This document shows positions 15,646 to 61,484 of a stretch of DNA of 64,000 nt, piece by piece; positions within the stretch are counted from its first letter, which is position 1; every line of letters starts with the position of its first letter. Made by a program: the position numbers and the translations under genes. The notes below the pieces were generated by a model that was given only the letters and a program-made list of their open reading frames with translations, was not told the origin of the DNA and ran no database searches. Source of the stretch: a bacterium (GTDB lineage: Bacteria; Hinthialibacterota; Hinthialibacteria; Hinthialibacterales; Hinthialibacteraceae); NCBI GenBank assembly GCA_963663405.2, contig CAXXSM010000079.1, positions 1-64,000 on the forward strand, in the 5' to 3' direction.

Positions 15646-17598
15646 ATGCTGTTGATTCCGTGGGCGCTTGTCTTTGGATTGGGGTGTTATGCGCAGACAC
15701 TGGTTCTTGATGACCGTCTCTTTACCGGTCTGATTTTATATTTGATCGCAGGCGTTTTATCCTACCTGATTCTTACAGTATCCACAGGTAAAAACACGGT
15801 CCAACACAAAACGGAGAAAACGAACGGCTGGACCTCCACGAAAGAAGTTTTATACATTCCTCTCATCGCCGGACTTCTCTGTGTAGCGGCGTGTGTTTGG
15901 CTGATCCGAGAGGCCACGTTAGCAAAATCCTACCGCGGTGATCTGTTTTCCTACGGGCTCTACTGCTGGCTTGCATTCTGGCTTTTCACGGCGATCGCGA
16001 TACACCGCCCATTCTTCACCGCGCTAAGGAAAGAGACCTGGCGGTCACTGGCTCCACTGGGGGGATTGCTCCTTCTCGCGCTGCTCCTGAATATGTACCG
16101 GCTGACAACGCTGCCCATCACAGTGCACGGCGATGAAGGCATGGTCGGCGTTCATGCGCGGTATATTCTATATGGCAAGCTTCCGACGTTCTTCTCCACA
16201 TCATGGTATTCGATCCCCCAGTTCTTTTTCAGCGTTCCCGCCGGGACACTCTATCTCTTCGGCGACAATCTCTTTGGATTCCGCATGAGCGCTGTTCTTG
16301 TGGGCGCCCTGAGCGTGATTCCCTTTTATTTCCTCACGCGATGGCTTTGGGGAACGGGGCCCGCGATTGTGACCACGTTCCTATTGATCACGAATCATTG
16401 GATCCTGCATCTCTCCCACAGCGGCGTAAATTACGTTCAGGCGTTGTTCTTCACAACCACGCTGCTCGCGCTCTGGTTTTGGACGTATGAAAAACGCTCG
16501 ATGGCGGCGGCGATCGGAGCCGGAGCGGTGATGGGCCTCGCGCTTCTCTCCTATCAAGCCAATCACCTGCTTCCTCTATTATGGCTCGCATCCCAGATTG
16601 GGATTGTTCTTCTGCGGAAGATTTCATTCCGGTGGTTCGTTCTCACCACTCTGGTCCCACTTGCGCTCGCGTTCTTTGTGATCTCCCCGTTGCTCACCCA
16701 CGACATCATCTTAAGCGGAAGCGCCGCCACTTATAGTTCCCGCGCCCAAGGCGTGATCGCATGGACAGACCATAACCATCGACATTTGGATGGAGTCTAT
16801 AAAGCCAACGGCGATCCCGGCCGAATCTGGCAGGGACAAATCCGGCGCGCCTATCTCGCGCCCATCCGATATTCCGACACAAGTATGCAGTACGCCGGTG
16901 AATGGCCGTTTCTCGATCGAACGATGGCGGTGTTTTTCATGCTGGGGATTGTGACCGCGGCGTTTCGATTTTTCGATCCCCGGTGGTCGATTCCAGTAGT
17001 CTGGATTTGCGCGATCCTAACCGCCGGAGGAGTCTGTACCGTGGACGCGCCATTCTACCCGCGTCTCACGGGAACAAGCGCGCTCTATTTTCTTCCCATC
17101 GCGGGTGTTTTCGCGGGTATTTTACGGTTGGCGGACACCGGGAAAGTCTGGAAATGGTCCGCAATCGCACTGATTGCAGTGGCGGCGCTCATGTCGGCTA
17201 AGACCAATTTGCAAAATTATTTCATTGTCTATGCGAACGAGATCAGTCCTAACAACATCCATTATCCACAAACTCAACTGGGCTATCTTCTCGCGAAAAG
17301 AAAATCCGAAGGAGAGGTTGCGCTCTTTTCCGGCCCCCATTTATCCCTGGGCAGCGGAACCGTCCAGTTTCTAGTGAAGGATACCGAAGGAATCACCACA
17401 AACAAAATTCCACCCGGTATAGACGGCAAACCATTCACCATCTTCGTCGACTCGACGCAATCTTCCATCGTCAAAGAATTGAAAAATTTATTCCCCAACG
17501 CGGTTATGGAGGAACATCGGTCTTTTCGAGGTCAGCTGATGTTCACAACCCTCACACAGAAGGGATCAAGTGATACTCCACCAACAAATCTCAACTAA
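15646..17598 (+). CDS. GT-C fold membrane glycosyltransferase (ArnT/PMT, GT39-like)
   Basis: Many TMs; HGDEG acidic motif in the first large loop; LFGDNLFGFR segment. Confidence 0.75.
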   Translation: MLLIPWALVFGLGCYAQTLVLDDRLFTGLILYLIAGVLSYLILTVSTGKNTVQHKTEKTNGWTSTKEVLYIPLIAGLLCVAACVWLIREATLAKSYRGDLFSYGLYCWLAFWLFTAIAIHRPFFTALRKETWRSLAPLGGLLLLALLLNMYRLTTLPITVHGDEGMVGVHARYILYGKLPTFFSTSWYSIPQFFFSVPAGTLYLFGDNLFGFRMSAVLVGALSVIPFYFLTRWLWGTGPAIVTTFLLITNHWILHLSHSGVNYVQALFFTTTLLALWFWTYEKRSMAAAIGAGAVMGLALLSYQANHLLPLLWLASQIGIVLLRKISFRWFVLTTLVPLALAFFVISPLLTHDIILSGSAATYSSRAQGVIAWTDHNHRHLDGVYKANGDPGRIWQGQIRRAYLAPIRYSDTSMQYAGEWPFLDRTMAVFFMLGIVTAAFRFFDPRWSIPVVWICAILTAGGVCTVDAPFYPRLTGTSALYFLPIAGVFAGILRLADTGKVWKWSAIALIAVAALMSAKTNLQNYFIVYANEISPNNIHYPQTQLGYLLAKRKSEGEVALFSGPHLSLGSGTVQFLVKDTEGITTNKIPPGIDGKPFTIFVDSTQSSIVKELKNLFPNAVMEEHRSFRGQLMFTTLTQKGSSDTPPTNLN

Positions 17599-18273: not shown

Positions 18274-20266
18274 TCTTCCTCACCTTCTGTTTCCTGGTTC
18301 TGGATGGCTTGCTCAAGAGCGTGTATGACGCGGGGATCAAACGAGCGGTTGCTGAGCCGTTTCAGCGCTTTCAGTATTTCCTCCTGCCGGGTTTGATCGG
18401 CGGATCTCGATTGATTCCGGCGGAAAAGAAGTGTGGCGTATGCGTTGGCGGCGGCGATAATTCGTGAACCGAGTGGAATCTGTTTTTTCTGCGTTCCTTC
18501 GGGATACCCTCGTCCATCCCAGGATTCATTCACATGAAACACGATTTCACCGACCTCTTCCGGCAGGCCCAGCGACTCGACAAACCGAACGCTTAATTGA
18601 GGGCTTTTCAGGCGCTGCTCGTCGATGGGGACATGAGTCTGCAGCGCGCGCAGCATTCCCGTGTCATGCAACAGAGACGCATAGGTCAGATTGTTGTACT
18701 CGATTTCATTCAATTTCATGACGCGGGCGATCCGCTGCGCCCATTCACAGGTGGTTACGGTCACACCGGGTTTCGCGGGATCCTGGGTTTCGATCAAGTT
18801 GGAAATGCTTTTCAGAACATTGACCGTAATAGTCCGCTCCCCTTCGTGCAGCTGCGCGTTTTTGATGGCCAGAATGATCTGTTCGGCGAACGTGAGCAGA
18901 ATCTCCCGGTCGCCGGGTGTGAAGCCACCTTCTTTATCCGCGACGACAATCACCCCCTCAATGTCGCTGTCAAAGAGAGCGACCGCCAGATAATCATCGG
19001 AGGGATAACTCTCCCCCCCATCTTTCCACGGCGGCGGTTTTCCCCCAGGACTGTAGACCATTGGATTGAAATTTTCGGCGACCCACCCCGCCAATCCTTC
19101 TCCTAGCGTCAACGGATTCTGACCGATTTCATCCTCTTCCATACCCAGCGTCACTTTGGGGATTAAATTCCGCCGGTCGGAATCGCAGAGCATGATCGAA
19201 CACTTTTTAACTTTTAACAGTTGGCGGGTTAATTGTCCGATTTTGGGAAGCAGTTCATTGACACTAATACTGGCGGAGATTAATCGATGAACGACGTGGA
19301 TCGACGCCAACGCCCGCCGGCGTTGATTCATCTGTTTCAAGGTCAACGCATTATCCAGCGCCGCCGCCGCGCCGATCGACAACAACCGGATCACACTCAT
19401 CTTGCCAACCGATTTCGGATTCATTTCGTCCGTATACGTAAGAAATCCTCCGATCAGCTGTGACTTGCGGTAAAAGGGAACAGCAAGACAGACAGCCTTC
19501 TCATCTTCCCAGCCTAAATCCACTAAGGATTGACTTAACCACTGCTGGATCGGATCATCTTCCAAAAGCGGCTTTAACGGTGACGATGAGATATCCATCC
19601 GGTCGGAGTAATCGTAACGGCTGATATCGAGATTGCGTTGTTTTTCCAATGATTTTGGATAACCAAGCGCGCGCGCGGGATAAAAAACTCCGTCCTCATC
19701 GATTAATAGAATCAATCCATCCGGAACTTGAAGCGCGGAACATAATTCCTCCAACACCCGTTCCAGCAATTCATCCAAACTGACAATGGACAGCGTTTTC
19801 GCCCATAATTCGTGCACCAGTTCCAGATCGTCGTGGTCTTCGAGAGCCCCGGACAACAACACAAGATAACCTTCCATAATCCGGAGAGCTTCACCAAGTT
19901 CCTTCTTGTGCGAGTTTTCCACATGACAAATTCCGATCCCTCCCATCGACTGACCACGGAAACGGAAAATGGCCACACCTTGCAGATAGTCCTCACAACA
20001 GGGAAAATCACCGATTCATATTGTTGTTTCCCGGTAGGCTGAAAAAAGGGTTTTAGATACTGTTCTAACGTTTCGTCCGAGTCTTCACACTCGCAGGAAG
20101 AATTCGATCCCTCCAATGGAAACCGCCGCCGTTTCAGATTCTCATCAATGATCCACCAATTCGCTCCCCGCAAAAGAGGAGTCAATCCCTTTCGAAGAGC
20201 GGTGATATAGGGATTAATCGCAATGTCTGTAAAACGAAGTTGAAAAGAATACTCTGAATCAGACAT
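18270..20266 (-). CDS. Sensor-GAF-GAF-HD-GYP-like signalling protein with degenerate active site; apparent frameshift at ~20001-20007
   Basis: ORFs 19712..20284 and 18270..19976 join if one base is added in TTTTCCC. The ATG at 20266 overlaps the glnD stop. Two GAF-like regions, LLHDTG and WDGRGYP. Confidence 0.75.
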
Positions 20267-22895
20267 TCTTACTATCGCTTTCAATTACGTTTTGGAGTTC
20301 TTTGTGAAGCCGTTCAACCTGCTCTTCTTCCAAAATTTTCCCCCCGGACGAATCCGCGACATAGAAAATCACGGTGAGACGGACACCTTCCGAAATAATG
20401 CGCGCGAAGTGAATATTCAACTTCATCGCCGAAATCACACCGGTGAGTTGTTGAAGCAGATTTCCACTGTCGGCGGAACGGACTTCAACTACGGTAAATC
20501 GCGCCGTAATATCGTTGATAACTTTGATCTGATTCGCGCAGCTGCTGCGTCCCACATTCGAGATTTTCGTCATTTTGGGAATCGGCGGCGTTTCTTCATC
20601 ACTGGGCAATATTCTTGTCAACCGTTCTTGCAACAGATGTTGACGCGACTCAGAAATCGGCCCATTTCTCAAGGTGTCACGGATCACCAGATTATTTACT
20701 ATGACACCGTCACTCCGTGTATTCAACCGCGCTTCGATAATCGAGAAATTCTCCAGCGTCATGGCGGCGCATATGCGGTTAAACAATCCGACTTTATCCA
20801 AATAGACTAAAACCATTTCCCGGCAGTCGGGATCGAGGTGGGGATAAAAACGCGTGACCGGCATGCTTCCATCAAACGCGTTCAAACACGCCAAGTGCTG
20901 CCGGACCTGATCCACCGACTGATGGAGAAGATAACTGGCTGGAAGACACTCCAGATGTTCCCGCACCAAAGTATGTTCAAATTCATCGCCGAGAGCTTTC
21001 ATCAGCGATTCTTTCTGTGAGACCACATGAATGGTCTCATCCGCATCCGCATGAGCTTCATTTTCAAAGACGCGGCGGGTAGCCAGATACAAATCCCATA
21101 GAAGATTATTCTTCCATTCTGTCATCGATTCCGGAGAGACGGACCGCATGTCGGCGTACGTCAAAAGATACATCATATCCAGATCCGCGCCGCTGTCGAA
21201 CGCGTCGGCAAAATCGGCCAATACTTCCGGATCGGATAAATCCCGCCGCTGTGCGGTCCGGCTCATGAGAAGGTGATTCCGGATCAGGAAATCCAACCGT
21301 TTCCGTTTCGCTTCCGGCAGCCGCATCCGCCGTGTGATCCGGTCGACAAGATCGGCGCCGGTGTGCGAATGATTGCCCGGCTTTCCTTTCCCGATATCGT
21401 GGAATAAGGCAGCGAGCCTGAGGGTGTCTTTCTCCTTGCATTCGTTCCAGAGCAGATAGCGCTCCCGGGCGAAGTTGAACGTATCCTCGTGTAGATTCTC
21501 GATATGATACAGCGTCAACAGAGAATGCTCGTCCACTGTATATCGATGCACCAAATCATAGCGTACCAGGTTAGCGATCCCGCGCCATTCTGGAATGATG
21601 GCTTTCAGGATTCCAATACGCCGCATTTCCCGGAGTATGCCTTCTATCCGGTCTGGGAGCGCGAAAAAGCGCCGTAATAAAGCGGCGTTGTGTTTATCAA
21701 AAAGAAATGTGTGATCGATCAATTCGAGATTGTCGTGAATCTCCGAAACTGTGTCCTCCGCCAGCGTCGCCTCCTGTTCAGCGGCGTGGATGAAGACCTG
21801 TAAGAGCCGTTTGGGATTATGCTCAAAAAAGTGAATATCGCGTGGAACATGGATCTGATTATTGCGCACATAAAATCCATCCGCCAGTTTCTTGCTTCGT
21901 TTGAAGGAAAGAAACGACCAAACGGATTTAGGCGCGCAGCGTTGAATAACATAGCTGGAGAATCGGCGGATATTGACTGCGTGTTTATAATACTCACGCA
22001 TCATCTCTTCTTCCGCGAGCCGTCCCCGCCGGTCTCTATAACCGAGACGTTTGGAAACTTCATGCTGAAGCGGCAGCGCCAAGACGTCTTGTTCTTTTCC
22101 CGTCAGGAAATGGAGATCATTGCGCAACCGCCAGAGAAAAGCGATTGCTTCTTCGACCATTGTCATCATTTGATCGTCGATTAGATGGCTGCGCTTCAGG
22201 TGGAGGAGTTTCATGGTTCTCCCCTCCCAAAGCGAAGCCGTCCAGATTCCCAAATGATAATCCCGCAGACCGCCTTTGCTTTCTTTCACATTCGGTTCGG
22301 AGATGTTGATCGTTAAGCCGAACCGGGAAGCGCGTTCTTCGCTCTCCCTCACTTTCCGCCGGATATATTCATACCGGTTTTTCCAGAGCCGGCGCCACAA
22401 ATCATTTTTAAATCGTTCAAACAACCGCCAATCGCCTGACAGGAAACGGCTTTCACACATCGCCGTCTGACTATGCGTGTCCCTTACCGCGATATCGAGC
22501 GCTTCTTTATAACTCCGGCAGCAATGTCCGACTTGAAAACCAAGGTCGAAGAGATTGCGGAAAATCCCTTTAACCAGTTCGCTCTCCTTCTTACTCAATG
22601 GATTCACATGGAGAAACATGATATCCACGTCGGATTTTGGATGCAGTTCCCGCCGCCCATACCCCCCTTGAGCCAGCAAAAGAATATGCGAAGGCGGTTC
22701 ATCACGATCAAGGATTCGCTGCAGATGGTAGAGATAGATCCTTAAAATCAAGGTATCCGTGGTTTCGACCATCTCGCGAACCACTTCACGCGGATCTTCA
22801 TTCGCCTCATGCAAATGGCGAATCGCTGAGACGTCGTTTGTATAATGAGCGTAACCGCTTGATATTTCTGTATCTACAACAGAAGAAAGAGCCAT
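20259..22895 (-). CDS. glnD: [Protein-PII] uridylyltransferase/uridylyl-removing enzyme
   Basis: GGYGRRELHPKSDVD nucleotidyltransferase motif, VKESKGGLRD, HRYTVDEH, LFHDIGKG HD domain, two C-terminal ACT-like domains; 878 aa. Confidence 0.95.
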   Translation of the reverse strand: MALSSVVDTEISSGYAHYTNDVSAIRHLHEANEDPREVVREMVETTDTLILRIYLYHLQRILDRDEPPSHILLLAQGGYGRRELHPKSDVDIMFLHVNPLSKKESELVKGIFRNLFDLGFQVGHCCRSYKEALDIAVRDTHSQTAMCESRFLSGDWRLFERFKNDLWRRLWKNRYEYIRRKVRESEERASRFGLTINISEPNVKESKGGLRDYHLGIWTASLWEGRTMKLLHLKRSHLIDDQMMTMVEEAIAFLWRLRNDLHFLTGKEQDVLALPLQHEVSKRLGYRDRRGRLAEEEMMREYYKHAVNIRRFSSYVIQRCAPKSVWSFLSFKRSKKLADGFYVRNNQIHVPRDIHFFEHNPKRLLQVFIHAAEQEATLAEDTVSEIHDNLELIDHTFLFDKHNAALLRRFFALPDRIEGILREMRRIGILKAIIPEWRGIANLVRYDLVHRYTVDEHSLLTLYHIENLHEDTFNFARERYLLWNECKEKDTLRLAALFHDIGKGKPGNHSHTGADLVDRITRRMRLPEAKRKRLDFLIRNHLLMSRTAQRRDLSDPEVLADFADAFDSGADLDMMYLLTYADMRSVSPESMTEWKNNLLWDLYLATRRVFENEAHADADETIHVVSQKESLMKALGDEFEHTLVREHLECLPASYLLHQSVDQVRQHLACLNAFDGSMPVTRFYPHLDPDCREMVLVYLDKVGLFNRICAAMTLENFSIIEARLNTRSDGVIVNNLVIRDTLRNGPISESRQHLLQERLTRILPSDEETPPIPKMTKISNVGRSSCANQIKVINDITARFTVVEVRSADSGNLLQQLTGVISAMKLNIHFARIISEGVRLTVIFYVADSSGGKILEEEQVERLHKELQNVIESDSKNV

Positions 22896-53518: not shown

Positions 53519-55103
53519 CTACATTTCATCGCAGTCCTGATCGGTTGCGAATTGTGTTTCTTGCGAAGTATCGGAATCTCCTAACAGGATTTTTTTCCGT
53601 TCAGCGGCTTCATGCCGCAAGCGGTTTTCCTGTTCATCGGAACGTCTTTTCATCAAGGCTCTAACGTAGAGGTTAATTCCCAAACAAATAAGAATTCCAA
53701 TTGATCCAAACAGACAAATCACTTTGGCGCAAATACCAGTAACAATGGCGGGCGATAAAAGCGGAAATAAACCAACAAAATACAACCCAAATTGTTCGGC
53801 CCATTTTCAAATGGGCGTCACCGCGAACGAAAATTCTATCCGCCCACCCAGTTGCGATAACGGCGGCGAATGCGACATACGTCGTTGACACAGGTAAACC
53901 CATCCCTGAAGCGAACGCAATCACACTTCCTGAGACAGAGGTAATAACAGCCGCCCGTAACGCGTCGTAATGTTGTAATTTATGCTTTTCCGTAAAATGA
54001 GGTTCGGGAGCCAAAGCCTCATCGGGTTTCCGTTCCTTGATGAATTGTTTGGCAAGAGTTACACACCATTTGGGCGCGTATAACCTCACGACATCCCCTT
54101 GACTGCCCGTATTCACCTCAGCGCGCGTAACACGCTGAGCGGTTCGTGTGGCCATACCCAACGCCAAGAGGACTCCGCACAAAAGAAGCAGATAGATCGA
54201 GACCGGCACTTCAGCCAACATTTTGACGTCTTCCCCTAAATGTTGAAGAATCATCAAGGAGGAGACACCGGGAGAAGCGCAATTGGCGAGATCGTTTTGA
54301 CCAAATGCGATGGCTGTCGCCAACATACCTAAAACCGCCATTCCTGCAAACAGATTTTTCTGTATGATCTCCCCCCCCAATCGAAGCGCCATCCAAGAAA
54401 GAAAAGCCAATACTGCGAACACAATAGTAAGCACAGCAGGGGCTCCAAGCGCTTCAAATGTGGTTTTTTGTATAGAGGCGACGAAATCTACATGGCTCAT
54501 CCCTTTGATAAGCATGAAATAGACCAGACCGGTCATAAGAAAGGCCGCGATCCAAGGCCCATGAAGACGGACTCGTTCCGTATCTTCACATTCTTGACCG
54601 ATCGCCCCACGAAACGCGCGCTGGATAAAAAAGCCGATTATCCCGCTAAAAATAATCGATAGGATAATACCAAGAATCACTCGCCCGCTTGAAATCCACT
54701 GGATTGTGTCATAACCGCCGACAGCATAGCCTCCCCCAAGCAACGCGAAAACAAGAGTGGCCGTCGTCGAGACGGGCATACCATACGAGGAAAAAGAAAA
54801 AAGAAGCACAGTATTGGTAATATAAACAGCTAAATAGATTGCGAGAGCATCTGTAAGAGAAATCGTAGTGGGATCAAAGATTCCTTTCCGGGCGGTTTCC
54901 ATAACCTGTGAGGATGCGACGGCGCCGAGAATTACAGCGAGTCCCGCAATCCGGACAGCCCATTTCCGCTTCATTACCCGGGCTCCAAAAACTGCGTTCA
55001 CAATATTCGCCGCATCGTTCCGACCCACTTCAATCGTGTTCCAGACAAGCATAACACCGGCTATACAACCTGCGAGATAAAAAAAGATATAGGATTCATT
55101 CAT
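53519..55103 (-). CDS. PiT-family inorganic phosphate transporter; apparent +1 frameshift at ~53750
   Basis: GRNDAAN and GQNDLAN signatures, PVSTT twice. ORFs 53673..55103 and 53519..53785 join as FIAAIVTG on removing one C. Confidence 0.88.
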
Positions 55104-55650
55104 AGCAGGATTCAGCTCCTATTTTCCCTTTGCCTTGTTTTCACGTACCCAAAATTACGTAATTGCGGATGAACTTCTTTCAATTGCAGGATGGAAAATT
55201 GATTGTGGTTTTTAGAAAAATAGATGAGAGAGACCCATGGCGAGTCAATCAGTGGATAACGATTTTGAAATCCTATATAAGGATTATTATTCATGTTCGA
55301 TCGTTCTGCTCGTCATACCAAAGTGAGTTCGACCGGTTTTAGGGATTCCGAGATAGTTGTAGTCCTGTTTTGTTTTTTCATTAAACATGGCGCATTGCTG
55401 CAAAGCCTTCTATCCAGTGCTGACCCCGGACGTTAAATGAAACTCAAGCCAATTTTATATACAATAAGTTTCTCAACAACTAGATCAATATTTCCTTTTT
55501 TTTCTGGCTTTTAAACGTTTCATTTTATAACGAAAAAACATTAATTTTATTTATTTTTCAATGTTAACATACAATTTACAGACTCGATCGAAAACCTCAA
55601 GCCGTTCAGCATGGATTAACAATTCTCTAACAATACATAAAATAACATAG

Positions 55651-55687
55651 AAAAGACCGGCCCAAGCTCCGCCTGGTTACCGGTCTT
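55651..55687 (-). terminator. Rho-independent terminator closing the candidate sRNA
   Basis: AAGACCGGT-aa-CCAGGC-gga-GCTTGG-GCCGGTCTTTT on the - strand. Confidence 0.75.
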
Positions 55688-55821
55688 AAAGTTACCGAAG
55701 GTTGGTCAGTTAGCTCCGCCAACATAAACCTTCGTCAATTCCGAAGGCTGTTTCGGTCACCTCGGCAGTTCACTCGAAATATCCTGTCGAAGTTCCTGTC
55801 AACCTTCTCTACAGCACCCAG
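55651..55821 (-). ncRNA. Candidate sigma54-dependent small RNA with GGA-loop hairpins
   Basis: GC-richer, hairpin-rich block with no listed ORF inside AT-rich intergenic DNA, bounded by a -24/-12 promoter and an intrinsic terminator. Confidence 0.6.
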
Positions 55822-55832
55822 GCTATTTATTT

Positions 55833-55848
55833 ACAAATCGTGTGCCAA
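55833..55848 (-). promoter_or_regulatory. Sigma54 (-24/-12) promoter
   Basis: TTGGCAC-ACGAT-TTGT vs consensus TGGCAC-N5-TTGC: correct spacing, one mismatch at -12. Confidence 0.75.
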
Positions 55849-55896
55849 TTCAGTTTTGAAATAGAAATCCAGGGTTAATTGACAACAAAAAGCATA

Positions 55897-55909
55897 TAAA
55901 ACACTGATT
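55897..55909 (-). promoter_or_regulatory. IHF-like binding site
   Basis: AATCAGTGTTTTA matches WATCARNNNNTTR about 50 nt upstream of the -24 element. Confidence 0.5.
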
Positions 55910-56059
55910 TAAAAGAGTTTAAAAAATAACAACATAAAAAGCGGCCAGATTGAACTTACGAAAAAGAGAACGAATAGAAAAGTGATAAGTAGGAATTTTT
56001 TACCTAATGGACAAACCATACCGGAATGAATCGTCTACAGAGACCTACGCGATTTCTTA

Positions 56060-56758
56060 TTACTCGGTATCCGATCCAGCGGCGACAACAACACCTTCCT
56101 GGATTTCATATTCGTCATACGCGTATCCCGGTTTTAAAACACGAGTGATACAACCGGGTTTCACGGTATCCGAAGATTCCTGTCCAGAACAATGAACATA
56201 CTCCGGATCAACTTTATCACCGACAACCGCCGTCCGGCGCAGCGGCATTTTATCAACCGCGGCGGAAAACAGATCGGCGGACTGACTCATCGGCTTATGG
56301 ATGAAGATAAAACTGTTCTTTAAAACGCCTAAATCCCCTTCTTCGACCTTTTTGTCCATGAAAAGCATCGTCTCAAGGAAAAGATCGAACCGTGTCAATA
56401 GATCCGCCATCCGGTCTTCCCTGATCGAAACGGTGTCAGCGCCTCTGTAAGAATAAACCTGGTAGGAGAGCGTCTCCTGTCCATACGGGAATTCCTGCAA
56501 GCGGCCCAACCGGCCGGGATGTTCTCCCGATTCTTCCATAACAATCTCCTGCGCCGAAGAGAGAAACCGTATCAGATGATTATGACATTTCTCAATTGCT
56601 GTGCCGATATCTCCTGAGACTGTCGCCGTGTACCGCTCAAACGGTTCCAAGGCGCGGGAAAAGGCGGGATCCATCCCCCGTGGAAGGGGAGCGACCAGAT
56701 CAGTCATGGTTCGCCAACTCTCAGCGGGCACATATAAATCTCTAAGGCTTTGGGACAT
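56060..56758 (-). CDS. Protein with C-terminal GrpE-like head domain
   Basis: VGDKVDPEYVH...KPGCITRVLKPGY...EGVVV resembles the GrpE FDP..H..GY motif. Confidence 0.6.
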   Translation of the reverse strand: MSQSLRDLYVPAESWRTMTDLVAPLPRGMDPAFSRALEPFERYTATVSGDIGTAIEKCHNHLIRFLSSAQEIVMEESGEHPGRLGRLQEFPYGQETLSYQVYSYRGADTVSIREDRMADLLTRFDLFLETMLFMDKKVEEGDLGVLKNSFIFIHKPMSQSADLFSAAVDKMPLRRTAVVGDKVDPEYVHCSGQESSDTVKPGCITRVLKPGYAYDEYEIQEGVVVAAGSDTE

Positions 56759-58729: not shown

Positions 58730-60478
58730 TCATTTTTTCTCTCCGTCTTTGCATACGAGTGAAGATTCGAGCAGATTGGTGATTTGGGCGTATATGTCAT
58801 GAAAGATTTGGATAGATTGACCGAATGGATCTTGTATTTCAAAAGAACCTACATTGTGAAGGCGCCCAAGATAATGTATTTTTGATGCGGCGTATGGATA
58901 CGAACGCTTTAAAACGGAATGATTTTCTCTATCAAAAACGAAGATGATATCCGCGCGTTGTATCATCGAATCCGAAAGCGTCTTTGAACGATGAGACCGC
59001 ATGTCAACTTGGAAATCCTCAGCCGCTTGGATGGCTTCTATTGGACAGGAGCGTTCACTGATGGGATAATACCCCGCAGAAAAGAACTCTTTCTCTCCCT
59101 GCCAAAGCGAGTCCGCGTAATACTGAGCAAATGGGCTTCGGCAAATATTTCCCTTACAAACGAATAAAACCGAACGGGCATTCTGAAAATTCTTGATTAT
59201 TGTTTTCATCTTTCTCGATCGGACCGGTTTCCATTGAGACACTTTGAAACAACCCCGGTTGAACAATTCAGACGCGCAATGTTGAAAAAACTGCCTGAAT
59301 TCAACAATGGCCGGCCATAGATCATCCCACACCCACGTATCGCTGGATTCTTTGAATTGAAGAAGATGAAACCATTCCATGAACGATTGGATTACTGGAG
59401 AATGATTCAAGGTTCGATCGCTCCGATCCGCGCGGAGATTTTGAACCATCCATCGGAAATCAAGAATCCAGTTACGGCAATAGCGGTGAATCGGATATTC
59501 GGTTGGAAAAGAATTTCTATTACGAACAAGCATTTCATAGAGGAAAAAAGGAAAATCGATACCGCAAGAGACCGCGAGTGGAAGCGATCCCCAAAAACGG
59601 GCGTTGATTTCGACAAAAATCCACTCGCCTGTGGTCAGGTTTTTGCGGAATTCAATCATGGCGGCCCCAGTATAGTTCAACTCTCGAATAATACTTTCCG
59701 CCGCTCTTCTAAGATCGGGATCAATCGGAACACTCATTCGATACGAACTGCCACCGCCATGCAGCGGTTCATGAACGCGTTGATGTTGAAACGCGGTTCG
59801 AACCTCTCCATCCTTTGATAAAATCTCAATCCCTACACCTGTGCCGAAAAAAAATTCCTGCGCTAACAAAGGAAACATATCCCGCCGATTCGCGATCCAT
59901 TGGACCGCCTCGGCCACATCGAACGCGCGGCCCACCGTATTCCGCCGCCAGAGAGCCTGTTTCGACACCGAGAAACCGGGTTTAATCACAATTGGAAAAC
60001 GAAGAGATTCAATGCGTTCACGCGCGGTGTCAGGATTATCAAGAATTACACTCTTGGGCGCGGGAATGGAAAGGCGGCTGATGAATGTATGGGTTTGGCA
60101 CTTATTAAAAAGCAGATCATAGTTTTGCTCTTCCGGAATCGCCATCCGGCACAAAGGTTCGATGCGCCTGCGGTTTTCATGCAGCGGGATAATGAAGGAA
60201 TCAGCGCATGGAATCAGTAAATCATACCGTTCAGCGGTTAGAATACGGATGAGTTTCTCGATCCATTCCTCATCCTGACCGATCCGATATTCCGGGAGAA
60301 TATGAATCTGAGTGATGTATTTTGAGTGGCTGGCAGGATCCGATTCCCGGCAACCAACGCTATGTACTTGTATGCCTTTCCGGCCTAAGGAGCGCGCGAC
60401 TGTTAAAAAACTGCGAGTATCGGCGCCGAATACAAGGACTCTGCCGGTAACATCAGAGGAAACGTTTTGATTACTCAT
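58730..60478 (-). CDS. ATP-grasp carboxylate-amine ligase fused to LMW protein-tyrosine phosphatase domain
   Basis: FPIVIKP, LAQEF, HGGGSSYR, VEINARFWGS; C-terminal CKGNICRS P-loop and IQDPF. Confidence 0.85.
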   Translation of the reverse strand: MSNQNVSSDVTGRVLVFGADTRSFLTVARSLGRKGIQVHSVGCRESDPASHSKYITQIHILPEYRIGQDEEWIEKLIRILTAERYDLLIPCADSFIIPLHENRRRIEPLCRMAIPEEQNYDLLFNKCQTHTFISRLSIPAPKSVILDNPDTARERIESLRFPIVIKPGFSVSKQALWRRNTVGRAFDVAEAVQWIANRRDMFPLLAQEFFFGTGVGIEILSKDGEVRTAFQHQRVHEPLHGGGSSYRMSVPIDPDLRRAAESIIRELNYTGAAMIEFRKNLTTGEWIFVEINARFWGSLPLAVSCGIDFPFFLYEMLVRNRNSFPTEYPIHRYCRNWILDFRWMVQNLRADRSDRTLNHSPVIQSFMEWFHLLQFKESSDTWVWDDLWPAIVEFRQFFQHCASELFNRGCFKVSQWKPVRSRKMKTIIKNFQNARSVLFVCKGNICRSPFAQYYADSLWQGEKEFFSAGYYPISERSCPIEAIQAAEDFQVDMRSHRSKTLSDSMIQRADIIFVFDRENHSVLKRSYPYAASKIHYLGRLHNVGSFEIQDPFGQSIQIFHDIYAQITNLLESSLVCKDGEKK

Positions 60479-61484
60479 GTAGCGCCTTTGTAGATGAACG
60501 CTGGACAAAGAAGTGATAAAAATCTGTTAGCCCCGCTCCTGTATAGTTCTTCGATGCGGTTTCAAATAGAATTTCCAGATTTTCATACAATTTATCTATA
60601 CTCTCCCGATCTGGAAATGTTGGGCTGCCGCCGGGCATAAATTCAGATGAATGCAACATAAATTCGACGCAACTTCGCTTTTCATGCAATGCGCGTTGGA
60701 CAATAGCCAGCATCGCATTCAGATTGTTTGTACCCGGACGAAGCCAGGACATTCGCAATAATCTATTCATCACTCGCCGAAGAAGAGAAATGTTTGGCGC
60801 CAGCTTTCGTATTGGTTCAAGCCAAACCCATTTTGTCGATATAATCGTCATGGGAACTTCGAGCAGTTTTGAGTTACCGGGTTGTTGTATGTTGTTGAGA
60901 TCGAGAAAATATGGCTCTTCTAAAAAATGGGTATAATCCGTCCCTCCATTTTGTTCTGGATCCCCCCGCACATCCCGCCAGGAAATATGCGGCGTGACGG
61001 AACAGTCAACCAGATATCCTTTCTCCTCCAGGATCGAGATATAGAATTCATTCAACGCCCACCGGCCGGAACGGTGACTGGTCATTTTTATCCCGAATGT
61101 GTCTTCCAATAACTGGGTCAAGTAATCAATCTTGTCTCGTATGATTTGTGGTGGATACTCGGTTAAATAGGGGAGATATTGATAATCATCATCCGTCAGC
61201 GCTTGAATCGGGGGTGAATTCCAAGCATGCAGGTGCATCCCGATTTCCCCCACTTTTCTCTGTATGACATCCCGGCCAAATTCTTGAAAGACAGGGTCGA
61301 TGGCCATTTCATAATTGGTTAAATACGTTGGTTTGAATCCATAGTGATCACAGAGTGATTGGAACCGGGGAAGGAATGAAGCGTTTTGTGTGGTTATATT
61401 TTTTGGACTGGTCCAAAGGTTATCCCCTTCCGTATCAATGGTTATCAAAAAGAAAGGTGGTTGTTGATCTTTCGTGCCATGCAT
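60471..61484 (-). CDS. WalW-like polysaccharide deacetylase
   Basis: FLITIDTEGDNLW, GEIGMHLHAWNSPP, SHRSGRW, MLHSSEFMPGGSP. Confidence 0.82.
   Translation of the reverse strand: MHGTKDQQPPFFLITIDTEGDNLWTSPKNITTQNASFLPRFQSLCDHYGFKPTYLTNYEMAIDPVFQEFGRDVIQRKVGEIGMHLHAWNSPPIQALTDDDYQYLPYLTEYPPQIIRDKIDYLTQLLEDTFGIKMTSHRSGRWALNEFYISILEEKGYLVDCSVTPHISWRDVRGDPEQNGGTDYTHFLEEPYFLDLNNIQQPGNSKLLEVPMTIISTKWVWLEPIRKLAPNISLLRRVMNRLLRMSWLRPGTNNLNAMLAIVQRALHEKRSCVEFMLHSSEFMPGGSPTFPDRESIDKLYENLEILFETASKNYTGAGLTDFYHFFVQRSSTKALHE

Follow-up and report, generated by a model that had tools for sequence, protein, structure and literature searches.

The building of a flagellum is a standard example of genes expressed in a set order. 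Here we describe a locus in a 64,000-nt stretch of bacterial DNA (positions 1 to 64,000 of contig CAXXSM010000079.1, assembly GCA_963663405.2; hereafter the window), which on balance we take to be the gene of a stand-alone, trans-acting, base-pairing small RNA (sRNA) that belongs to the hook-stage σ54 regulon, is aimed at flagellin mRNAs and possibly also binds CsrA. Among known systems, CJnc230 (FlmE) of Campylobacter jejuni comes closest by analogy; it is described as an RpoN-dependent sRNA derived from the flgE mRNA that base-pairs with flagellar mRNAs and has flgM and Cj1387c as targets (PMC11187230). The two systems resemble each other in RpoN-dependence (here a σ54-type promoter), in a tie to a hook gene and, as predicted here, in pairing with flagellar mRNAs and in a link between the middle and late gene classes. 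They differ in that CJnc230 is processed from the flgE mRNA, whereas the gene described here stands alone with its own upstream activating sequence (UAS), promoter and terminator; in addition, its predicted targets are flagellin leaders, on which it would engage a 5' seed and one loop in contact with another, and two of its hairpins have GGA at their tips. CJnc230 is set apart here by that description and by the absence of an Rfam match, not by sequence comparison.

A second group of relevant systems acts through CsrA. The known CsrA sponges carry about five GGA sites at the least. For CsrB and CsrC, 13-22 sites are reported (PMC6546359). As in CsrB, CsrC and RsmX/Y/Z of Gammaproteobacteria, the RNA described here is noncoding, presents GGA at hairpin tips and occurs in a genome that encodes CsrA; it differs from them in having two invariant tips, a σ54-type promoter with a flagellar UAS in place of GacA/UvrY control, no Rfam match and a CsrA partnered by FliW. 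In the literature consulted (including PMC11934962), sRNA antagonists of CsrA are described for Gammaproteobacteria and the antagonist FliW for Bacillus and Campylobacter, with only predicted sRNAs outside Gammaproteobacteria. FliW-type CsrA systems are said there to work without antagonist sRNAs, and a non-exhaustive literature search found no such antagonist that had been verified. The control of hag and flaA by CsrA and FliW in Bacillus subtilis and C. jejuni is matched here by a fliW-csrA operon and by flagellin leaders that hold a GGA hairpin and a GGA-bearing Shine-Dalgarno (SD) site; those systems operate without an sRNA, whereas the prediction here is of an sRNA that brings additional GGA hairpins and docks on the leader 5' of its CsrA sites.

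Three further sRNAs bear on mechanism. OxyS pairs with fhlA at two places, including a kissing contact between an sRNA loop and an mRNA loop, and McaS combines base pairing with the binding of CsrA, the latter by means of a few GGA motifs. These two serve as analogies of mechanism only; organisms, targets and promoters are different, and we claim no relatedness. GlmY is a σ54-dependent sRNA. It is reported to act as a decoy for RapZ (PMC4152352, PMC7073468). GlmY concerns another protein, fold and pathway, and it mimics a sister sRNA, whereas the hairpins here mimic an mRNA leader hairpin. An earlier sequence-only reading of the window had proposed a σ54-controlled protein sponge as new regulatory wiring. 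Its σ54-type sRNA gene stands; sponge activity is at most part of the story, and because GlmY exists, a σ54-driven protein sponge is not new wiring in itself. What appears to be new is the predicted two-point docking on flagellin leaders, which would be unusual, together with a possible CsrA handle, on a regulatory sRNA of the flagellar σ54-dependent type.

The locus lies in a 950-nt gap on the - strand between an open reading frame (ORF) of 232 aa (56060-56758; weak GrpE match) and a PHO4/PiT gene (53673-55103). Within this gap, positions 55848-55651 (-) comprise a σ54-type promoter, a predicted noncoding RNA of ~170 nt and an intrinsic terminator. All the elements that the sequence-only reading had listed on the - strand are present, at the coordinates given below, and so is what it took them to form, an unannotated stand-alone sRNA gene with a σ54-type promoter: this promoter, TTGGCAC-N5-TTGT (-24/-12; 55833-55848), is kept in 23 of 23 genomes. 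A conserved UAS, which that reading did not list, is represented by the 13-bp palindrome-type motif GGTAAAAAATTCC at 55992-56004 (-), 157 nt 5' of the T of TGGCAC. The interval between UAS and promoter includes an A+T-rich stretch with the IHF-consensus-like sequence AATCAGTGTTTTA (55897-55909, -); the IHF consensus pointed out earlier is thus present at 55909-55897, but since just 2 of 23 genomes have the strict form at a comparable position, we regard the element as weak. The sRNA itself, from the predicted +1 to the terminator T-run, spans 55651-55821 (-) and scores 157 bits with the covariance model described below. No ORF of ≥60 aa overlaps it and a single 32-aa ORF (55627-55725) does. 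A simple terminator scan left the terminator, whose stem is broken by an inner hairpin, unflagged. Rfam returned no family at the locus when the whole window was searched at gathering score, and a search of 55100-56100 at E ≤ 10 gave just two chance-level matches, both to eukaryotic families.

We denote the genome of the window G000 (8.4 Mb; assembly 82% complete) and related genomes by other G numbers. A BLAST search of 40 relatives with a 221-nt query gave near full-length matches (68-82% identity, E ≤ 2e-5) in 21 of them, made up of 17/19 same-family genomes and 4/4 genomes of a second family. The alignments mostly start near the promoter (query positions 8-14; a third at 25-42), and nearly all stop at the terminator (208-218). 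A covariance model built from 22 sequences found a single copy in each of 23 genomes, out of the 35 that represent the phylum in our collection, and all 23 belong to one order: 17 of 19 in the own family (plus G000), all four of the second family and one of two in a third, with none in the nine genomes of the phylum's other three families. Both same-family genomes in which no sRNA was detected are 85-86% complete assemblies. Paralogues were sought in G000 with BLAST and the covariance model, and it carries the one copy only. All 22 aligned sequences, as well as a 23rd that is more distant, retain the promoter in the form TGGCA[CT]-N5-(Y)YG[CTA], the GCGGAGC tips of the two hairpins and the T-run. 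The pattern CGAGTGANC...GCGGAGC...GCGGAGC, run over a species collection, yielded at least 113 loci; of the 100 given to the covariance model 13 matched, and the 87 others, mostly from high-G+C genomes, did not. Judged by structure, alignment and covariance model, the gene is that of a new RNA family, present in single copy in an uncultured lineage. As far as our literature searches, which were not aimed at the lineage by name, can show, no regulatory RNA has been described in it.

Gene neighbourhoods bear on whether the RNA is instead a cis-acting leader or attenuator of whatever lies downstream, which would be PiT in the window and a NagB-like gene in the second family. PiT does follow on the same strand in 10 of 23 genomes, and a NagB-like (Glucosamine_iso) gene begins 63-145 nt downstream of the sRNA gene in 3/4 second-family genomes. 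Against such a role, the downstream gene varies and is convergent in at least three genomes (G004, G011 and G013), the terminator and PiT are 548 nt apart in the window, and the gene's own UAS, promoter and strong terminator are kept everywhere; we consider a cis-acting role extremely improbable, and the worry that the locus is only a PiT leader falls away with it. A GrpE-like gene lies upstream in 10 genomes. The conserved upstream neighbours point to shared gene order rather than to a functional link.

The predicted RNA is unusually stable: 181 nt around it fold with a minimum free energy (MFE) of -66.6 kcal/mol (z = -3.76), and none of 200 shuffles was as stable. Single-sequence folds gave a common architecture, a free 5' tail followed by three domains, in 20 of 22 sequences. 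Since RNAalifold on a MAFFT alignment returned a muddled consensus, we used and tested a structure derived by hand from the single-sequence folds. In the sequence-only MAFFT alignment, 91.7% of cells at its paired positions hold standard pairs, against ≤51.5% when partners are slid, and 10 pairs are changed on both sides, against 3.7 ± 1.5 in shuffles (0/500 reach 10). An alignment of 23 sequences fitted to the model, and hence biased towards the structure, gives 95.2% standard pairs and compensatory changes in 20 of 41 pairs (6.1 ± 1.9 in shuffles). Compensatory changes back all six helices, P1-P6, and with them the homologues that were looked for beyond the window, in 23 of the phylum's 35 genomes, now lend covariation to the proposed RNA.

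Domain 1 (55743-55807, -) consists of helix P1 (55807-55801 with 55749-55743) around hairpin P2 (55792-55784 with 55768-55760). In domain 2 (55696-55734, -), helix P3 (55734-55727 with 55703-55696) encloses hairpin P4 (55723-55709), and domain 3 is the terminator helix P5 (55651-55687, -), whose inner hairpin P6 (55676-55662) is followed by the T-run. In the model-fitted alignment 5/7 pairs of P1, 4/8 of P2 and 5/9 of P3 are changed on both sides and P4 is 97.7% paired; P5 (100%) and P6 (96.4%) each contain compensatory changes. The recurring GAAGGTT/AACCTTC complements that had been seen in the letters are real and form P1 and P3. As such repeats allow two pairing schemes, we also considered the alternative topology (a with b', b with a'), which is the MFE fold of just 2/22 sequences and misfits G023; P1 and P3 differ in sequence in G023, the most distant member, and this fixes the topology.

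Four exposed motifs outside the helices are invariant or nearly so. The first is the 5' single-stranded motif GGGUGCUGU (55811-55819, -), which has A at one position in one genome. The second is CGAGUGAAC in the P2 apical loop, containing UCGAGUGA at 55770-55777 (-). The third and fourth are the GCGGAGC tips of P4 and P6, identical in 23/23 sequences and at a constant spacing of 36-40 nt. These tips belong to the two GGA hairpins recognized from the start, GTTGGC-GGA-GCTAAC (55723-55709) and CCAGGC-GGA-GCTTGG (55676-55662, inside the terminator hairpin 55687-55651). The heptamer GACAGGA, also remarked on then, does occur twice (55800-55794 and 55788-55782), but the copies are not conserved as such; with the alignment read by eye, GGA is found at the entry of the P2 loop in ~18/23 sequences and in an internal loop in about half.

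The promoter is conserved along with the RNA. TGGCA[CT]-N5-YYG[CTA] is found in 23/23 genomes, with its -12 element 13-14 nt 5' of the invariant RNA sequence GGGUGCU, and the second family has the canonical TGGCAT-N5-TTGC. The UAS, GG[CAT]A-N5-T[TGA]CC, is likewise found in 23/23 genomes, often as a perfect GGCAA-N3-TTGCC or AGGAA-N5-TTCCT; its distance from TGGCA is -134 to -161 in 22 of them and -200 in the other. A strict pattern of this palindrome, 118-148 nt and a σ54 promoter was hit 13 times in the order's 26 genomes, and its reversed control once. The sRNA gene accounts for nine of the 13 hits and orthologous fliK promoters (ahead of a long Ser/Lys-rich ORF) for three, and the last one shares the fliK palindrome on the other strand.

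This arrangement ties the sRNA gene to the flagellar hook operon. Pfam searches identified FliK, FlgD and FlgE downstream of the shared palindrome and promoter in G012, and fliK-flgD-(136 aa)-flgE-flbD-motA-motB downstream of the UAS and promoter in G000. An initial DNA search with the G012 leader was too insensitive (three real hits), and we therefore collected the DNA upstream of fliK from 27 relatives and G000 through a Pfam FliK search. The palindrome and a promoter of the form TGGC[AG]Y-N5-TTGC precede fliK in 15/16 genomes of the main family and 4/4 of the second, the palindrome lying at -109 to -135 (one at -173). In the third family (two genomes) and in three outgroup genomes the fliK promoter is present and the palindrome is absent by our search pattern. 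Throughout the 8.4 Mb of G000, where the sRNA gene lies on contig C79 and fliK-flgE on C160, there are only two intergenic pairs of palindrome and promoter (reversed control, 0), and they are those of the sRNA gene and fliK; from sequence, therefore, co-activation of the sRNA with the hook operon by one enhancer-binding protein is most likely.

Several observations accompany the hook operon. Two UAS-like sites with promoters in G000, C3:17224 and C52:24139, were considered as flagellar and rejected, since their context is not flagellar. The fliK gene of G000 (C160 ~18733-21749, -; loci L226/L227) is split into two ORFs, with a stop after residue 273 of the N-terminal part followed by a 731-aa ORF with the Flg_hook domain, which would reflect a frameshift or else, in a gene of such low complexity, faulty assembly. 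folB and recG are divergent from fliK (G008 C21 ~17365-17533, loci L182/L215; G000 C160:21989-24669), and in G008 a σ54-like pattern on the recG side shares the fliK palindrome; the enhancer may act both ways.

The clearest hint of function is that two of the four exposed motifs have antisense counterparts upstream of flagellin genes. We examined 30 flagellin upstream regions of 300 nt each, drawn from 26 genomes. The antisense counterpart of the 5' motif, CAGCACCC, is present in 9 of these regions with a total of 13 copies (0.24 in shuffles, maximum 2), GCACCC in 21 regions with 35 copies (3.9 in shuffles), and the counterpart of the P2 loop, TTCACTCG, has 4 copies (0.16 in shuffles); the two sense 8-mers are both absent. 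In an unbiased comparison over 23 genomes, with 28 flagellin leaders between them, we also set all 7-mers of the sRNA against the leaders of the same genome. Matches in antisense peaked at two places only, the 5' motif (14-17 at columns 2-4; 7 at column 5) and the P2 loop (14-17 at columns 61-62), with 0-1 sense matches and ~1 match in shuffles at both peaks; all other windows had ≤4 matches on either strand. Genome-wide in 26 genomes, the bipartite pattern TCACTCGA-N15-45-AGCACCC gave 28 hits, against 1 control hit. Eighteen of these are trivially the antisense strand of the sRNA gene itself; among the other ten, seven sit 100-150 nt upstream of flagellin genes and three are in unrelated contexts.

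The leader sites are themselves organized by structure. UCACUCG(A/G) occupies the loop of an 11-bp hairpin in 12/13 aligned flagellin leaders; this hairpin is 87.4% paired (≤49.7% when slid), 7/11 of its pairs are compensatory, and its loop sequence, UCACUCGA, has UCGAGUGA of the sRNA as its exact reverse complement. CAGCACCC follows ~25 nt downstream of the hairpin and often recurs ~95 nt upstream. The loop site is thus 5' of the seed site on the flagellin mRNA and the seed 5' of the loop on the sRNA, an order that fits the need of simultaneous antiparallel pairing. In one G000 flagellin leader the predicted duplexes, at -127 and -174, have energies of -19.3 and -17.3 kcal/mol. Eight outgroup leaders, from four genomes of families without a detected sRNA, lack both sites (TCACTCG 0/8; CAGCACCC 0/8) and retain the CsrA-type hairpin and SD site.

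Complementarity of this kind could also arise as a by-product, if both the sRNA gene and the flagellin leaders carried sites for one factor that reads a near-palindromic motif, with no pairing involved. Reverse complements such as UCGAGUGA and UCACUCGA would in principle suit a DNA-binding dimer or a strand-blind motif, and one G000 flagellin upstream region (C3 ~29120; locus L173) does contain, at about -115, UUUCGAGUGGAA, a sense-like near copy of the P2-loop motif and the sole sense-type match. The strong strand asymmetry at both motifs argues otherwise, as do the RNA-level covariation of the hairpin whose loop holds the leader site and the fact that two distinct motifs match in the order that antiparallel pairing requires. 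We judge this explanation very improbable.

A number of points weigh against a base-pairing sRNA of the hook-stage regulon. The strict bipartite pattern is absent from the second family (0/4), though two of its leaders hold AGCACCC. Exact 8-mers occur in just 9/30 (CAGCACCC) and 4/30 (TTCACTCG) leaders, counts that overstate independent support because kin share leaders. The seeds never vary, so that no covariation between sRNA and target is possible, and the sole variant sRNA, that of G007, has no matching change in the one G007 leader examined. The complementary sites are 100-290 nt upstream of the flagellin start codon, and the leader hairpin of G000, with a U-rich run behind it, could instead terminate the transcript of the preceding gene. 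G016 (86% complete) has the leader hairpin and no detected sRNA. Duplex predictions for five sRNA segments against the -70..+30 windows of 6,724 crude G000 gene calls were no better than for shuffled seeds, in a window that leaves out the far-upstream flagellin sites. On the side of transcription, rpoN (Sigma54_DBD) was not found in the 82%-complete G000 assembly, in which the other genes that a σ54-controlled CsrA sponge calls to mind, csrA, fliW and hfq, are present; yet 19/19 same-family relatives and 37/41 genomes overall encode rpoN, and G000 has 36 Sigma54_activat matches. A cognate enhancer-binding protein was sought beside the sRNA gene and none was found; a Sigma54_activat fragment ~10 kb from fliK, considered as the cognate activator, is surrounded by unrelated genes and was rejected. 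Finally, we infer both the transcription of the gene and the ends of the transcript from its DNA. Rfam, applied to six flagellin loci, matched no family, giving only isrG at 23 bits against a gathering score of 100.

The remaining two invariant motifs, the GCGGAGC tips, may point to CsrA. In G000, csrA lies directly after fliW (PF02599 at C132:103888-104046, 93.9 bits). Three G000 flagellin leaders have a hairpin with loop AUGGAC, AGGGAA or AUUGGAC followed by an SD site with GGA. The flagellin leaders share a GGC-A(N)GGA(W)-GCC hairpin with a GGA-bearing SD site, and a layout of this kind is found in relatives and in outgroup families too. The fliK leader has a CGGAG-tipped hairpin (GGC-CGGAGN-GCC and variants; 3-bp stems read by eye) in 14/16 main-family genomes and in one genome each of two other families, G020 and G023, and 3' of it a CsrA-type SD site, CA[CAT]GGA[AT]GG. 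Both sRNA tips share CGGAG with this hairpin. Because the tips copy the fliK hairpin that stands beside a CsrA-type SD site, they would probably, if less certainly, bind the same protein as the fliK leader, and that protein is most likely the FliW-partnered CsrA.

CsrA itself is encoded in 35 of 35 genomes of the phylum, including the 12 without a detected sRNA, and its distribution therefore neither supports nor refutes a link to the sRNA. Other observations speak against a role for CsrA. Just two tips are invariant, and the A that opens ANGGAN is missing from them. Neither kind of hairpin is enriched: GCGGAGC hairpins number 16 genome-wide (1.9% of 829 occurrences), a figure that 19 control permutations bracket, and CGGAG hairpins occur in the 5' regions of 29 genes, against 12-50 for control pentamers, in a count whose crude gene calls missed fliK.

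How much of the RNA's function lies in these tips can be framed by two opposite accounts. One, close to the CsrB/RsmZ-like sponge that the sequence-only reading put forward, has the sRNA titrate CsrA through its GGA hairpins and nothing else, leaving the other motifs to stability or processing. A single CsrA dimer could bridge a spacing of 36-40 nt such as that of the two invariant tips, some genomes have up to three extra GGA motifs, csrA stands beside fliW, and the same CGGAG hairpin adjoins a CsrA-type SD site in the fliK leader. As stated, though, the sponge is not supported: there are only two conserved sites, where known sponges have 5-22, the tips are GCGGAGC and not the ANGGAN that flagellin leaders of the same organism display, all 35 genomes of the phylum encode CsrA and 23 have the RNA, and the exact antisense match of the other two invariant motifs to flagellin leaders is left unexplained. 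That the RNA is purely a CsrA sponge is thus distinctly unlikely.

The other account keeps the pairing and dispenses with CsrA, making the GCGGAGC hairpins structural, stabilizing or bound by some other protein. The antisense evidence is indeed independent of CsrA. An A/U-rich linker, a terminator hairpin and a U-tail make up the layout typical of Hfq-dependent sRNAs; the sRNA has all three, and hfq is encoded in G000. The invariance of all seven letters of GCGGAGC also exceeds what the loose ANGGAN of CsrA would ask for, the flagellin loops of a single genome being as varied as the three found in G000. Recurrence of the CGGAG tip in the fliK leader, beside CA[CT]GGAUGG, an SD site of CsrA/RsmE type, argues instead for a shared reader of GGA, for which CsrA is the only candidate we found, and we rate pairing without CsrA as rather unlikely.

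The second family differs at fliK. Its fliK leaders (L203, L205 and L206) are longer, at ~130-190 nt, and carry a CACGGAU-GGA-AUCCGUG hairpin in place of the CGGAG hairpin, and they also hold CAGCACCC and UCGCACCC, antisense of the sRNA 5' motif. The sRNA of this family may pair with fliK mRNA as well.

Returning to the base-pairing sRNA of the hook stage, we propose the following mechanism. An enhancer-binding protein would bind GGCAA-N3-TTGCC ~135-160 bp upstream and activate σ54 RNA polymerase at TGGCAC-N5-TTGT, as a similar site and promoter would drive the hook operon fliK-flgD-flgE-flbD-motAB. The sRNA would fold into its three hairpin domains and leave the four invariant motifs exposed. 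Its 5' tail, GGGUGCUG, could then pair as a first seed with CAGCACCC in the flagellin leader, while the P2 loop, UCGAGUGA, acting as a second seed, would concurrently kiss the loop UCACUCGA of the leader hairpin. Pairing at both points would couple hook-stage transcription to flagellin expression. With CsrA on its tips, the sRNA might bring CsrA to flagellin mRNA or remove it from flagellin and fliK mRNA. Read in this way, the locus forms a putative circuit, with an enhancer site common to the hook operon and the sRNA gene, two seeds that match flagellin leaders and two hairpins that copy the fliK-leader hairpin. If correct, it would insert a step of RNA control between the hook stage and the making of flagellin, and the sRNA would possibly be the first to talk to a FliW-partnered CsrA.

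A more elaborate version, which we offer tentatively and as doubtful, is that of a tethered CsrA adaptor. Made together with the hook genes, it would dock on flagellin leaders by seed and kissing loop and so set its two CsrA hairpins beside the CsrA sites of the leader itself; it would either reinforce the repression of flagellin by CsrA until the hook is completed or strip CsrA from flagellin and fliK mRNAs. If it exists, such an adaptor would provide a FliW-type CsrA, outside Gammaproteobacteria, with a partner sRNA, and would unite antisense pairing, protein capture and a σ54 flagellar checkpoint.

Further observations concern G000 and the window more broadly. In G000, an ORF of 374 aa, presumably an insertion sequence transposase, is present in at least six identical copies (contigs C1, C7, C22, C77 and C102) and is preceded in every copy by the same stretch, with a 12-nt match to the arm of the first GGA hairpin of the sRNA (-22.6 kcal/mol); this match is within the range of shuffled controls and probably due to chance. 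σ54-like promoters at C41:37796 (-), C83:25606 (+) and C157:1947 (+), at least one of these nitrogen-type promoters with TTGT at -12, precede ORFs that resemble by eye two ammonium transporters and NifH, which suggests a nitrogen regulon under σ54. Two further intergenic σ54-like patterns, C41:71811 (+), at a contig end, and C93:25870 (+), lack an ORF of ≥80 aa within 450 nt; the second stands ahead of a short ORF whose SD site is good, and both could mark additional small genes or sRNAs. Elsewhere in the window, the sole Rfam match is a full-length Acido-Lenti-1 RNA (RF01687; 62211-62256, -; 38.6 bits against a gathering score of 37), and an ORF of 592 aa (58730-60508, -) is an unusual fusion of ATP-grasp domains with a low-molecular-weight phosphotyrosine phosphatase domain at its C terminus.

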